Source: Octopus vulgaris (lineage: Eukaryota). Taken from it: DNA of 64,000 bases. Made by a program: the position numbers and the translations under genes. Location of the stretch: the NCBI GenBank assembly GCA_951406725.2, contig OX597824.1, positions 36,642,001 to 36,706,000 of the forward strand, read 5' to 3'. The notes beneath the pieces were generated by a model. The model had not been told where the DNA came from. It ran no database searches and saw nothing but the letters and a program-made list of their open reading frames with translations. Positions 360 to 63,591 of the stretch are shown here, piece after piece. Every line of letters begins with the position of its first letter. The first letter of the stretch is position 1.

Positions 360-2250
360 TGAACCAAAGATATCCTCTTTAATACTATTTTATACTTCTG
401 TTTTAAATTATAACCAAAGCACGGAATTTTTCCCCATCTGTAATTGTATTGGAATATTCTAATTTCTGTCGTGATGTATCTGAGACATTTTGCCTTTATT
501 AGTTATCAATCTCCTTCAGCTTTCTCACAGCACTTGTAACAATCTGGTTTCTTTGAATGAAAAAAAGCTTATTTGTGAAATTAGATTTTGGAATCAGTAC
601 TTACAATATTAATTAAAACCCCAGCAAAATTACTTGTTAAGACTGCTTAACATGATAAAATTACTATATACACACAGAAGGATATGCAAACATATACACA
701 CATACTCTCAAATACAACAACACATACTTTTATTATAGATTTATCTACCGTGTTACATTTTTGTTGAATACAGAACCCAGTAAAAGAATGCACCCTCTGT
801 CTCTGGGTTTAAATCATCAATTTGTACCTCATCTAGGCTGGTCATGTTCCTTGTTTGTTTAGTGTGTTACTTTGACTAATTTTATATTTGATTCCTGTAC
901 TATATTCACTTGAAGCAAGTTGCTAATCTTCTTGTGATATCAGATAATCTGCCTTTAGAACCTGCTAACAAATCACCTTCTGTAAATCTTATACTCTTTT
1001 ACTCTTTTACTTGTTTCAGTCATTTGACTGTGGCCATGCTGGAGCATCACCTATAGTCGAGCAAATCGACCCCGGGACTTATTCTTTGTAAGCCCAGTAC
1101 TTATTCTATCAGTCTCTTTTGCCAAACCGCTAAGTGACAGGGACGTAAACACACCAGCATCGGTTGTCAAGCAATACTAGGGGACAAACACAGACACACA
1201 AACACACGCATATATATACATACATATATATGATGGGCTTCTTTCAGTTTCTATCTACCAAATCCACTCACAAGGCTTTGGTAGATAGAACACTTGCCCA
1301 AGGTGCCACGCAGTGGGACTGAACCCGGAACCATGTGGTTGGTAGACAAGCTACTTACCACACAGCCACTCCTGCGCCTATATTGATGGAAATCTTTTGG
1401 AACCTTTTTTTCAAGAAAAAGATTGGCCACTTTTTTGACAAGGGACAAACTCAACTCCTTCCAATGTATATTCCAAACTGTTTGATGTTGTTCAAAACTT
1501 TACAAGTACTTTTCTCAGACAGGTGTTTTTACTTGTCTAATTAAAAGTAATGTTATGTTATACTTCTTTGTGATACCCCACTGTGCCTCCTCCTCCTCCT
1601 CCTCTTCTTCTTCTTCTTCTTCTTCTTCTTCTTCTTCTTCTTCTTCTCCTCCTCCCCCACCCTTCTTCTCTTTCTTCTTCTTCTCTCTATACACTGTTGG
1701 AAGTTTCTTTTAACAGGGTGTTAAAGTCTTTTAAAGTTTACAGTTGATGGTCTCTAAATTTCTTAATAATGATTATTACATTAGTCATCAGTTCAACAGT
1801 AGTCACCTTTTTTTTCTTTGAACTAACTCTATTTGTTTTTCACTAATTTCCCTTCATGCATGCAACAGTCTTAGATGTTTTAGCTATTAAAGTATTATTT
1901 TACTCAAGTGGCTTATGAAGCTGATGGCTAGATAAATGCTACATTTCTTCTTTGAACAACAAAGTTCTGTAATGCATCTAACCACTGGGATGACTATTTC
2001 TCCTTTACATAAAATCAGTGACAGATTTGGGGCAGCAATCCCATCATTTTTTTCAACATAGTTTTTGTTTGTTTTTTCTTTTAATATATTTATTGCATCC
2101 ACTGCACAATTTCACGATCCTTCAGTTTTGTTGGTGTTCAAATATCTTATTGGCTCTTCTATTTTACTAAATATTTCTGGTCCTTCATGATTCTGAGAGT
2201 GCAGAATGGTTGAATCTGCCTTTCGGGGAGAAGGTAACAGAGTGCCATGC
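360..2250 (-). mobile_element. Old degenerate RTE-clade LINE (RT and C-terminal region), interrupted by a SINE at 993-1381
   Basis: Remnant peptides in RTE order: IEEPIRYLNTNKTEGS (~EVEAAIRSLKxNKAPG), ISFISHLSKIIL (~ISLISHASKILL), RFTEGDLLAGS (~RFADDxxLLA), LGSVF (~YLGS), IKAKCLRYI. Many stops and frameshifts. Confidence 0.65.
993..1381 (-). mobile_element. tRNA-derived SINE family A (most abundant family here), full length
   Basis: Minus strand head GGCGCAGGAGTGGCTGTGTGGTAAG (A box) ... GGTTCAGTCCC (B box) ... CCTTGGGCAAG, central TA/CA microsatellite, tail (AGTAAAAG)n. More than ten related copies in the window. Confidence 0.85.
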
Positions 2251-3219: not shown

Positions 3220-3549
3220 TTAGAAAATTTCTATTTTTAAATCTCACAACATGAGATATTCAGCAACAGTACTTTGTAGTAAAGATAGTTTGTCAACATA
3301 ACATGGCAGTCCTGGTTTAGGACGAATGTTGCTGTAATTTAGCCCCCAGGAGACGTCGTCTCACGCTAGCTGTATGAAACAATGTGCCCTTATATTTTCA
3401 AACAAAGGGAAAACATATTTTCAAAAATATAAGGACACAGATCGTGTCGTATAGCCAGCTGGAGACGATGTCTCCTGGGGCATTTGTCCTAAACCAACAA
3501 CATTTGTCCTAAACCTGGACTACCATGTTATGTTGGCAAACAATCTTTA

Positions 3550-3552
<3 letters not shown>
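3220..3552. mobile_element. Fold-back element (same family as 18010-18452), apex deleted
   Basis: 3279-3400 is an imperfect reverse complement of 3425-3550 (gtaaagatagtttgtcaacataacatggcagtcc ... ggactaccatgttatgttggcaaacaatctttac). It shares the tggcagtcc/atttagcccc(c)agga motifs and a left leader with the 18 kb copy. Confidence 0.7.
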
Positions 3553-14016: not shown

Positions 14017-14335
14017 GAGAGTCATTTTCTTTTTGTGCCTTATAATGTAACACACTCACCGGTAAAATTTCCCCTTTTTTCTTATTTTTATTTTCCAAAA
14101 ATTTTCGTTGCGTCTTGCAAACTTTTCAATATAGAGTCAAGACTATTGAAAAGGTTGCAAGACACAATGAACATTTTAGGAAAATAAAAATAAGAAATAA
14201 GCGGAAATTTTACCAGGGAGTGTGTTACATTATAAGGCACAAAAAGAAAATGACTCTCCCCAGACACAACAGAATATGCTTCAACACACGAACTCATATA
14301 AAGAATCTTGCAAACCAAATCCAAAAACGAAAAAT
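14017..14335. mobile_element. Second copy of the asymmetric hammerhead-like fold-back element
   Basis: Arms 14017-14130 and 14143-14258 are inverted, with a right extension to 14335. Nearly identical to 6865-7165 but with a different turning point. Confidence 0.7.
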
Positions 14336-17775: not shown

Positions 17776-17829
<54 letters not shown>

Positions 17830-18009
17830 GAGTGACTCCAAAAAAACAGAACCCATAAAAATTTTATTAAATCTTACAAAGGTCCAGCAAATTTGCTGGA
17901 CTTAAACTTCAGTTTGTGTAGGATCATTCCCTTTGCATAAAAGTCATGCTCTTTTCAAAATATGCTCCAAATATAGAATTTCAAGTGAAATAAATTCACT
18001 GATCTAAAA

Positions 18010-18451
18010 AATTAGAAATATTGCATTTCTAAATCTCTCAAAGAGACTTATGCAATTGCAGCACAATAAAGTGATGGTTTGTTGCCAACTTAATGTGGCA
18101 GTCCCAGGAAAGGGAAGAATGCTACTGCTATTTAGCCCCAGGAAATAAATTTACTGATCTACTGATCAGTGAATTTATTTCACTTGAAATTCTATAAGTT
18201 TTCAAAGGAGAATAAGCATCGACAGCTAGCAAGCCAAGCTACTCCAGAGTGATGAAGAGGGATGACTCTGAAACTAGTATCTGAATAGTGGCTTTGCTGG
18301 GTGGAGGTGCTTATTTCCCCTGTTTGAAAACTTAAGGACACAAAATGCTTGTGTCTCATAGCCAACTGGAAATGGTGTTTCCTGGGGCTAAATAGCAGTA
18401 GCGTTCTTCCCTTTCCTGGGACTGCCATATGAAGTTAGCAACAAACCATTG

Positions 18452-18452
<1 letters not shown>
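18010..18452 (+). mobile_element. Rod-like fold-back element with a hammerhead ribozyme motif at its apex
   Basis: Outer arms 18071-18145 / 18378-18452; inner arms 18195-18248 / 18280-18334; hammerhead core between them. Leader 18010-18070 is shared with ~3220-3278 and ~25500-25575. Confidence 0.7.
18245..18283 (+). ncRNA. Minimal type-I hammerhead ribozyme motif (C3 mutated to G)
   Basis: CAGA-GUGAUGA-AGAG ggauga CUCU-GAAA-C UA GUA-UCUG: stem I CAGA/UCUG, stem II AGAG/CUCU, palindromic stem III ACUAGU, GUA cleavage triplet. Confidence 0.65.
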
Positions 18453-18499
<47 letters not shown>

Positions 18500-18505
<6 letters not shown>

Positions 18506-25133: not shown

Positions 25134-25721
25134 ATCTTTTATCTTTTACTTGTTTCAGTTATTAGACTGTGGCCATGGTGGGGCACCACCTTGGAGAATT
25201 TTTAGTTGAATGAATCAACCCCAGTAATTATTTTTTTAAGCCTGGTGCTTTATCAGTCCCTTTTGCTGAACTGGAATGTTATGGAGACATAAACACATCA
25301 GCACTAGCTGTCATGTAATGTTGGGTGTCAAACAAAAACACGAATATATATATATATATATATATATTATGATATTCTATATAATATGTTTATTGAAGAA
25401 TTATCTCTTCAAAATTTAATATATTAAACCAGTGTATCTTGGATAAATATCCCTTATAAGAGATTTGAATATTCTCATTGTGACTAATATATATATATAT
25501 AAATATTAATATTTCTAAATCTCTCTAAAGGAGACTACGGCAGTGGTACTGTATATTAATAGTTATCACCAAGTTAACATAGCTTTCGTCCTGTTTACCA
25601 TATCCATACACATGGCTTTGGTAAGCCAGTGGCTAAAGTGGAAGACAACTTACCCAATGTGCCACACAGTGGGACTGAACTCAGAACTATGTGGTTGGGG
25701 AGCAAATTACTTACTACACAA
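25134..25721 (-). mobile_element. SINE family A split by AT-rich insertions at ~25345-25590
   Basis: Tail half at 25134-25340, head half at 25590-25721. Confidence 0.7.
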
Positions 25722-26815: not shown

Positions 26816-26842
<27 letters not shown>

Positions 26843-26848
<6 letters not shown>

Positions 26849-27243
26849 AAAGATGGAGGTGGAAATAGCACAGAAATAAATCTAATACATTTCATTATAG
26901 AAAGAATTTAATAAAATGATTTTAAAATTATATAAAGAAAATACAGAATATTACCAATTTCAATGATGAATTTCATCTTATCAAATATTAGTAGAAATTT
27001 ATAAAAATCTGAAGTAAAAGTAGTTTATCTTCTGTCTGGGGGTCAAAAGCATGAAGATAAGCTGTTTTTACTCTAAACTTTTATACATTTTTCTAATATT
27101 TGATAAGATGAGATTCATCACCGAAACCAGTAATATTCTATATTTTCTTCATACAATTTTTAAATCATTTTATTAAATTCTTTCCAAATTGAAATGTCTT
27201 AGATTTACTTCTGCGCTATTTCCACCTCCATCTTTTATATATA
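26843..27243. mobile_element. ~400-bp fold-back with a U3-A8 hammerhead-like motif in each arm
   Basis: 26843-27031 is an imperfect reverse complement of 27053-27243. Motifs at 27095-27137 (+) and ~26947-26990 (-). Confidence 0.7.
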
Positions 27244-27630
27244 AAAATTTGATTTGTATACATCTCTAATCTTTTTTCAACTATATATATATATTCCCTA
27301 CTTAATTTAGTATTTCTTTAGGTTTATTTTTTATCCTTTATAAATTTATAAATTTTTACATCCCCAACATTTCTTATATCTATACCTTTACATTTTTACC
27401 TTATATTATACATTTAATTTTCATATACATTTTTACTCTCCTCACACAATTTGCATTTAACTTACATTAGATTTCATACATTATTTACATTTGCATCAGG
27501 TCTCTTGGTTTCGTTTTTTGGTTAGAAGTTTAGGATTTTTTATACGCTACCATTTTCTTCACGTTTTTTCATGTATGCTCATGTCCCACACCAGATTTAA
27601 AGTTCTTAGTTCATTAGAAAGAGTGATATA

Positions 27631-44274: not shown

Positions 44275-44856
44275 CTTTTCTACTCAAGGCAAAAGGCCCG
44301 GAATTTGGGGGGAGGGAGGGTCAGTTGATTAGATCGACTCCAGTATGCAACTGGTACTTAATTTATCAACCCTTAAATGATGAAAGGCGAAGTCAACCTC
44401 GGTGGAATTTGAACTTAGAACATAGACAGACGAAATACTTATTTCTTTATTGCCCACAGGGGGCTAAACATAGAGGGGACAAACGAGAACAGACAAAGGG
44501 ATTAAGTTAATTACATCGACCCCAGTGTGTATGTGGTACTTAATTTATCGACCCCAAAAGGATGAAAGGCAAAGTCAACCTCATTGGAATTTGAAGTCAG
44601 AACATAAAGACAGACGAAATACCTATTTCTTTACTACCCACCAGGGGTTAAACACAGAGAGGACAAACAAGGACAGACAAACAGATTAAGTCGATTATAT
44701 CGACACCAGTGCGTAACTGGTACTTATTTAATCGACCCCAAAAGGATGAAAGGCAAAGTCGGCCTTGGCGAAATTTGAACTCAGAACGTAACGGCAGACG
44801 AAATACGGCTACGCATTTCGCCTGGCCTGCTAACGTTTCTGCCAGCTCGCCACCTT
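44275..44856 (-). mobile_element. Meta-domain SINE, trimeric
   Basis: Units start at ~44275, 44436 and 44620, with the same gacgaaatac(c)|tatttcttta junction as 23364-23782. Confidence 0.8.
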
Positions 44857-44979
44857 ACTACCACTACTACTACCGCTACCACTAAGCATTTCACTCAGCA
44901 GACGAAATACCACTAAGCATTTCACTCAGCATGCGAACGTTTCTGCCAGCTCACAATCAATTAATATATTGATCACACT

Positions 44980-45200
44980 TAGGGTGGCAAGCTGGCAGAA
45001 TTATTAGCACACCAGGTAAAATGCTTAGTGCCATTTCGTCCATCTTTACATTCAGAGTTTAAATTCCTCCAAGGTTGACTTTGCCTTTCATCCTTTCAGA
45101 GTTTATGAAATAGGTACCAGTTGAACACTGGGGTTCATGTAATCAATTTATTCTCTATCCTGAAACTTATTGGCCTTTATGTCAAAATTTGAAGCTAATA
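44980..45200 (+). mobile_element. Meta-domain SINE, monomer
   Basis: agggtggcaagctggcagaa ... gactttgcctttcatcctttc. Confidence 0.7.
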
Positions 45201-45335: not shown

Positions 45336-45549
45336 TACACTTTTACTCTTTTACTTGTTTCAGTCATTTGACTGTGGCCATGCTGGGACACCGCCTTTAA
45401 TCGAGCAAATCGACCTTAGGACTTATTCTTTGTAAGCCTAGTACTTATTCTATTGGTCTCTTTTGCTGAACCACTAGGTTACAGGGACGTAAACACACCA
45501 GCATCGGTTGTCAAGCAATGTTAGGGGGACAAACACAGACACACAAACG

Positions 45550-45615
<66 letters not shown>

Positions 45616-45806
45616 CACACATACATACATATATATATACATATATATATGACAGGCTTCTTTCACTTTCCGTCTACCAAATCCACTCACAAGGCTTTGG
45701 TCAGCCAAGGCTATAGTAGAAGACACTTGCCCAAGGTGCCACACAGTGGGACTGAACCCGGAACCATGTGGTTCGTAAGCAAGCTACTTACCAGACAACC
45801 ACTCCT
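45336..45806 (-). mobile_element. SINE family A, full length
   Basis: Collinear with 993-1381. Confidence 0.85.
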
Positions 45807-46264
45807 AGGCTTTGTCCAAAAATCTTTGATCAAATGATGTTATAGAGTTATCTCCCTTGAATGTTTGTAAACATCTCGAAAGGGAGTTTTGTTTACTAAT
45901 TGTTTGAATAATTTCAGTTGATCAAAGTTTGACATTTCACATCTCATTATATTATATAGGTGGTATTTGTGACTGGCATGGAAGACATTCCTTCCGCTCA
46001 GTCATGTTGGTAACAGAATAAGGATTGGGGAGAGTGGGCCATTGCTGTACGTGTTGGGATAAAATAATTTGACAGATAAATTCTTATTGAATAGATGATA
46101 GCCTGATGGAGTCAATGGTTAGACAACTCAGCCAAGTGCAGCCAATAGGCAGGCAACTTGGCCATGTGCAGCCAATAGGCAAGTAACACAGTGTTTTTCA
46201 TACAAAACATCATTAACGACAACAACTTTTATTTTTCTGAAATTCACTGGGATGAAAGATCACC

Positions 46265-54479: not shown

Positions 54480-54860
54480 TTTTTATACTTGTTTCAGTCA
54501 TTTGAATGCGGCCATACTGGAGCACCACCTTTTGTCAAGCAAATCGATCCCAGGACTTATTCTTTGTAAGCCTAGTACTTATTCTATCGGTCGCTTTTGC
54601 CGAGCCGCTAAGTTACGGGGACGCAAACACACCAGCATGGGGAGACAAACACAGACACACAAACATATACTCACACACACATATATATATACATATATAC
54701 AACGGGCTTTTTCAGTTTCCATCTACCAAATCCACTCACAAGACTTTGGTCGACCCGAGGCTATAGTAGAAGACACTTGCCCAATGTGGCACGCAGTGGG
54801 ACTGAACCCGGAACCATGTGGTTGGTAAGTAAGCAACTTACTACACAGCCGCTCCTGCAC
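54480..54860 (-). mobile_element. SINE family A, full length
   Basis: Collinear with 993-1381. Confidence 0.85.
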
Positions 54861-54875
54861 CATTAAAAAGTACTT

Positions 54876-63189: not shown

Positions 63190-63591
63190 CTCTTTTACTT
63201 GTTTCAGTCATTTGACTGTGGCCATGCTGGAGCACCACCTTTAGTCGAGAAAATCGCCCCCAGGACTTATCCTTTGGAAACCTAGTACGTATTGTATCGG
63301 TCTCTTTTGCCAAACCACTAAGTTATGGGGACGTAAACACAACAGCATCGGTTGTCAAGCGATGTTGCGGGACAAACACAGACACACAAACATATACACA
63401 CACATACATATAAATATACATATATACGACAGGCTTCTTTCAGTTTCTGTCTACCAAATCCACTCACAAGGCTTTGGTCGACCCGAGGCTATAGTAGAAG
63501 ACACTTGCCCAAGGTGCCACACAGTGGGACTGAACCCAGAACTATGTGGTTGGTAAGCAAGCTACTTACCACACAGCCACTCCTGCACCTA
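63190..63591 (-). mobile_element. SINE family A, full length
   Basis: Collinear with 993-1381. Confidence 0.85.

Follow-up and report, generated by a model that had tools for sequence, protein, structure and literature searches.

A decayed two-armed insertion of a hammerhead-bearing tandem repeat in Octopus vulgaris, likely copied by a Penelope-like element

Results

Architecture of the locus

The window, i.e., the complete 64-kb stretch of DNA analysed here (the assembly has 2.8 Gb in 227 contigs), harbors an element at 17972-18456 which consists of two arms joined head-to-head. The original prediction had located an element at 18010-18452; it is present, yet extends further on both sides. 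The outer inverted arms (18071-18145/18378-18452), four inner arm pairs and the boxes of a hammerhead ribozyme were all found where they had been announced. The features are as follows:

17972-18145, minus strand: inverted arm, subfamily A unit positions 215-355 plus 1-33; includes the predicted 'leader' and left outer arm
18142-18163, no strand: short fold-back at the head-to-head junction, about 20 nt, reverse complement of 18164-18181
18164-18456, plus strand: forward arm, covering the unit from position 1 to about 293; stops at the first 3' end of the family, tail-less
18195-18335, plus strand: intrinsic long hairpin, an extended stem I, present in 7/7 subfamilies folded
18243-18285, plus strand: minimal type-I hammerhead
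18243-48/18280-85, plus strand: hammerhead stem I
18249-55, plus strand: hammerhead core, C3G in this copy
18257-59/18266-68, plus strand: hammerhead stem II
18270-73, plus strand: hammerhead GAAA box
18273-78, plus strand: palindromic stem III; predicted cut 3' of 18279
18457-18500, no strand: target tract of (TA)n, adjoining the element's 3' end
3220-3411, minus strand: arm of a subfamily B copy, inverted and with a tail
3420-3552, plus strand: forward, tail-less arm of the same subfamily B copy (3220-3552), 5'-truncated downstream of the hammerhead
25487-25584, minus strand: subfamily G tail remnant, 84% identical to locus L076

The copy at 3220-3552 is related and lacks the apex, as predicted; it is a truncated two-armed member of the sister subfamily B, the longer copies of which carry their own hammerhead. 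A remnant announced at about 25500-25590 exists as well, but is a tail of subfamily G and not the leader of the window element.

The sequence left of the element (17826-17971) resembles a Tc1/mariner end at its start; the segment had no match among the other loci compared. Another dispersed repeat family, SINE-like in appearance, occupies window positions 1002-1378, 25590-25700, 45346-45811, 54480-54861 and 63190-63589. Further long local inverted repeats at 14017-14258, 26836-27248 and 44683-45154 are unmatched by the unit profile and could be other two-armed insertions.

The repeat unit and its subfamilies

The unit of subfamily A is a dispersed, circularly permutable head-to-tail repeat of 355 nt. 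The longest stop-free stretch in 15 units is 50-92 aa, which marks it as non-coding. A first look at the genome with the apex gave 1171 candidates, of which 40 were scored (87-91% identity). Subfamily B (unit 353 nt) has 1795 candidates, and C (357 nt), B2, E, F, G and H (359 nt) were further distinguished; pairwise identity between subfamilies is 46-79%. Subfamily A is old (median 92.5% to the column majority) and H is young, 40 loci being 94-100% identical to the reference unit. B-like sequence is present in five organisms. A profile applied to 59 ten-kb stretches at round coordinates detected 6 loci, and none in reversed sequence; from these sampled stretches we estimate about 28,000 loci for the superfamily (range 10,000-62,000). 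In literature searches we found no published description of such a family in cephalopods.

A pattern of two cores spaced by 336-352 nt matched 34 times; among 30 matches fetched 3 were unrelated and 4 were situated inside a 50-bp satellite. Tandem units with two full hammerheads were found, including arrays of H, which is the tandem arrangement (150-400 nt) by which retrozymes are recognised. A young H array at 20.00 Mb (L249:2097-4768; G000:C1) comprises 1.8 inverted and 5.7 forward units, more than 99% identical and with intact hammerheads. At 42.84 Mb (L240-L244; G000:C23) a 50-bp satellite of 18 copies carries the subfamily C hammerhead core alone and adjoins a full unit.

The mobile entity had been predicted to be a viroid-like RNA rod of about 380 nt with stem I running through its entire length. 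Indeed, 18010-18470 folds as a near-perfect rod (-234.7 kcal/mol, z -22). Across the family, however, every copy differs in arm lengths and junctions. Among 50 loci of subfamily A an adjacent inverted arm exists in 28, with varying junctions, and is missing in 22. Segments longer than one unit (15/87 in A, 5 in B) continue back into the unit and not into a 3' UTR or an open reading frame. When 15 natural monomers were folded as circles the structures were branched (58-68% paired, z -1.6 to -8.4) instead of forming a unit-length rod, and viral contigs contained no exact core match. The viroid-like rod is, then, highly improbable as the mobile unit. Stem I corresponds to the inner hairpin of about 140 nt, whereas the outer 75-bp arms lie outside the repeat unit and, together with the leader, are an inverted copy of its 3' part, made with each insertion. 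Apex hammerhead and outer arms are of different origins. Because arm junctions vary and segments exceeding one unit run back into the unit, the outer rod is made anew per insertion; it is likely a side effect of the insertion process, not the form that the RNA takes.

The hammerhead ribozyme

A relaxed scan for minimal hammerheads on both strands of the 64 kb returned a single site, the window apex. The predicted mutation of its core was verified as C3G; C3 is present in 28 of 29 other fetched loci. Of 286 places compared with the column majority, 17 are deviant in the window copy, and these include C3G, the beginning of the loop and the base at the cut site: the family has the cleavage triplet GUC and the stem II loop CAAUGA, while the GUA site of the original prediction and a loop starting with GG are peculiar to the window copy. 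Family copies possess the CUGANGA and GAAA boxes and a UH site; the window copy departs from this by C3G. The exact intact core of 31 nt occurs 27 times, and never in the reversed control. The suggested comparison with the Rfam hammerhead models yielded no match at E<=10 for either the window element or an intact young unit.

The check suggested for stems I-III shows that they covary. In 17 copies from six subfamilies 95% of cells pair in the named hammerhead (slid controls, 20-49%), 10 of 13 pairs show changes on both sides, and 0/500 shuffles attain the covariation score but 29/500 the pair count; relatedness inflates these tests, and the scores lean towards the named structure, which was derived from the same sequences. 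RNAalifold recovered stems I and II unaided. The stem III palindrome differs by group (ACUAGU, AUCGCGAU, ACUCGAGU, ACAUGCAUGU, ACAUGU, ACCGGU). At least eight subfamilies retain core boxes, covarying stems I-III and a palindromic stem III, and a hairpin of 42-55 bp beneath the hammerhead is a constant feature (8/8 units, seven subfamilies tested). In cofolding the dimer was preferred by 3-7 kcal/mol. With C3, covarying stems and a palindromic stem III, the family has a genuine minimal type-I hammerhead, predicted to self-cleave as a dimer. C3G is reported to have abolished cleavage in an Anolis PLE hammerhead (PLE, Penelope-like element; PMC11167929), and the window copy which carries it is therefore probably an ordinary dead copy.

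Signature of insertion

The 3' ends of family members cluster at two fixed sites 47-58 nt apart; the stretch between them is the tail. In subfamily A, 29/87 ends are at site 1 and 20/87 at site 2; the respective numbers in B are 25/55 and 22/55. Twenty-four of 40 young H loci are two-armed; in 23 of these one arm ends at each site, and in none are there two tails. The exception, L367, has a second arm of 53 nt which ends elsewhere. The H query was biased towards loci having a tailed arm; with this taken into account, independence of the arm ends gives a probability of about 1e-4. One arm per site is also seen in 18/23 two-armed loci of B and in 10/25 of the older A, where 13/25 pairs have an end off both sites (L099 and L111 are left out of the B pair count and 7 duplicate loci out of the A count). 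In the window copy the inverted arm ends 36 nt past site 2, and no target duplication was seen at this locus.

Most H pairs have junction overlaps of 1-16 nt. (TA)n abuts most ends, and targets are AT-rich. Arms reach 5.7 units in arrays. Units diverge by 1.1% inside one arm, by 1.4% from arm to arm and by 3.0% from locus to locus; hence the two arms derive from an identical or clonal source. It had been suggested to inspect copies for an adjoining reverse transcriptase (RT)/GIY-YIG frame and for target-site duplications: duplications of 11-13 bp were identified by eye in 4 H loci, while no PLE frame occurred in the 79 A and B loci first tested.

Thus, the copies show the insertion signature of PLEs, i.e., a tail with two 3' ends, an inverted 5'-truncated arm and partial tandems. 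Published work regards a tail together with an inverted copy as specific to PLEs (PMC11167929; bioRxiv 2021.04.23.441226; PMC3846280), and two internal start sites were shown in vitro for a PLE (PMC11167929). In that assay the two strands reportedly showed no difference in start sites; against this background the one-tail rule in 23/24 loci sharpens the PLE mechanism.

Terminal inverted repeats and TA-rich flanks are also what one expects of a MITE, that is of a DNA transposon. Yet there is no fixed pair of termini and no uniform length; 5' truncation is variable, and tandem arrays, tails and a conserved ribozyme fold are present. An ordinary MITE is exceedingly unlikely. The prediction of a non-coding mobile family with a link to PLEs and retrozymes was right.

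Candidate helper elements

The genome contains 6136 GIY-YIG candidates; 150 were scored, with many frames of 781 aa combining RT and GIY-YIG. These PLEs have minimal hammerheads of their own; they target TA and carry tails that measure about 30-38 nt. No DNA similarity of the units to sampled PLE terminal repeats was detected in 120 loci (70 loci plus 25 of family J and 25 of family K), and the terminal-repeat helper search gave no match for the PLE families of L088, L091, D, J, K and others.

L088 (906-1982 and 2245-4587) is an abundant young PLE in which a 359-aa upstream frame without a Pfam match precedes the 781-aa RT and GIY-YIG frame; its hammerhead is a U3-A8 variant. Subfamily G (L076:7-290; L278; window 25487-25584) has a U3-A8 core and a stem III palindrome identical to those of the L088 family.

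PLE family J is very young (99-100% identity), with weak RT and GIY-YIG matches (E 0.0015). Its tail has 55-59 nt, a length similar to that in the repeat family, and all 4 two-armed J loci have one tail per pair. Four of 25 J loci are head-to-head fusions of H and J, H ending at site 1 and J bearing the tail. Shared flanks rule out independent events; a single event is represented. The mixed insertion (L369:1726-4640) became fourfold by duplication, and stem III is unusual in the hammerhead-like motif of J. Single chimeras exist with two other PLE families, D and K (L151, L372). L151, where a C unit adjoins a piece of RT, was followed up as a helper lead, and so were L220 and L372; none has a family-wide link. 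Family J is the best helper candidate for young subfamily H, which is suggestive only. For the window's own subfamily A we have no helper evidence, a point against mobilisation by PLEs.

The units might instead be 5'-truncated terminal repeats (pLTRs) of an unsampled autonomous PLE. Truncated solo pLTRs with minimal hammerheads are reported as common (PMC4209133), Xenopus retrozymes are stated to match pLTRs (bioRxiv 2026.07.22.740005), and the scored GIY-YIG candidates are a small part of the total. Against this, copies longer than one unit, H arrays included, re-enter the unit, and the 79 A and B loci are devoid of a PLE frame. We consider such an origin improbable.

The RNA template

The 5' ends do not pile up at the cut site (B 4/55, A 0/47, H 2/63 in the respective bin), which rules out a cut linear monomer as template. 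Within arrays, sixteen variants recur in some units and are missing from others, also across arms (L330, L360); this speaks against one monomer circle being the sole template. The variants of L358 recur with a period of 3 over 5.3 units, as would fit either a trimeric circle or a longer linear source. Two apparent patterns were discarded: read joints that go back by 350 arise from cutting a tandem unit and are not evidence of circles, and a deviating last unit in H arrays is an artefact of gap placement.

Three unstranded RNA-seq runs, sampled at about 12 million reads each (~6% of a run), gave 383-417 reads on an A copy and 1116-1462 on a B unit. Reads map to both strands and neither starts nor ends accumulate at the cut site, in libraries unsuited to small circles. 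They fit read-through of many copies; small circles are still compatible.

Conceivably an uncut linear multimer serves as template in all cases, circles do not exist and the hammerhead has a side role. The lack of a pile-up and the variants confined to some units are in keeping with this, and uncut RNA is reported as the main substrate of the Anolis PLE in vitro (PMC11167929). On the other hand, truncation in each round would shorten arrays, the hammerhead fold is kept across the wide divergence of subfamilies, the L358 pattern fits a trimeric circle, and a missing pile-up is equally compatible with circles. We give this possibility appreciable credence, while leaning against it.

Discussion

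All in all, the locus is, in our view with good confidence, a decayed two-armed insertion of a non-coding hammerhead tandem repeat of about 355 nt, likely copied by a PLE reverse transcriptase-endonuclease. The family behaves like a non-autonomous PLE, and its structure conforms to the definition of a non-LTR retrozyme; it would be classed as a non-autonomous PLE or variant non-LTR retrozyme, and neither as a viroid-like rod nor as a MITE.

Animal non-LTR retrozymes (Cervera and de la Pena 2020, PMC7229834; Li, Clavereau, Pollet 2026, bioRxiv 10.64898/2026.07.22.740005), as described there, share with the octopus family non-coding tandem units of ~350 nt, a GC content near 40%, one type-I hammerhead per unit, a range from monomers to multimers, and PLEs in the same genome. 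Unlike their canonical motif, the octopus hammerhead is of the minimal PLE type and sits on the 42-55-bp hairpin, and its units match no sampled pLTR. The octopus copies directly show duplications, inverted arms and PLE tails; a search of the 2020 paper (PMC7229834) gave no match for 'inverted' or 'target site'. Non-LTR retrozymes are defined with abundant linear and circular monomer RNA; for the octopus family, read numbers are low and on both strands, and circles are putative.

With PLE terminal repeats, as reported (PMC4209133, PMC3846280, PMC11167929), the family shares core boxes, an extra base after A9, a palindromic stem III, the U3-A8 variant (in subfamily G), two initiation sites, an inverted truncated arm and AT-rich targets. 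It differs by the lack of an open reading frame, by pure head-to-tail arrays and by a tail of 47-58 nt compared to a reported 30-40 nt. Non-autonomous Chlamys PLEs such as MRC1 are likewise non-coding, multi-copy insertions of PLE type arranged head-to-tail; in contrast to the octopus family their 3' ends are said to be similar to those of their helpers, and the group is described as being without hammerheads (bioRxiv 2021.04.23.441226).

The proposed cycle would begin with transcription of a tandem locus. Two hammerheads would pair via the palindromic stem III and then cut. The resulting unit or multi-unit RNA, probably circular at times, would be bound by a PLE protein dimer which cuts both DNA strands 11-13 nt apart. 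One DNA end would prime at site 1; its partner would use site 2, which is located 47-58 nt downstream and generates the tail. Synthesis would cross the ribozyme site and proceed for up to 5.7 units; finally, the two cDNAs would be joined by microhomology and appear as an inverted 'rod'.

A more far-reaching view is possible but on the whole doubtful: a long-lived, still active lineage of ribozyme RNA circles of ~355 nt, diverged from the terminal repeat of any helper and recognised by fold, not by sequence, may load onto one half of a PLE dimer. If so, the mixed H-J insertion would be the record of one dimer which carried parasite RNA and helper RNA, and the strict rule of one tail per insertion would mean that the two subunits start at different sites.

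Elements of this kind are already known. The octopus family adds to them a deep radiation of subfamilies that bear a ribozyme and lack a matching terminal repeat, the strict rule of one tail per insertion, and the young H-J pair. The superfamily would be misannotated as MITEs or unknown repeats. Mobilisation of animal retrozymes by PLEs has so far been proposed from co-occurrence and from terminal-repeat phylogeny; the octopus copies carry the PLE insertion signature itself and, by offering a young subfamily together with a named candidate for the helper, make this proposal testable in vitro.
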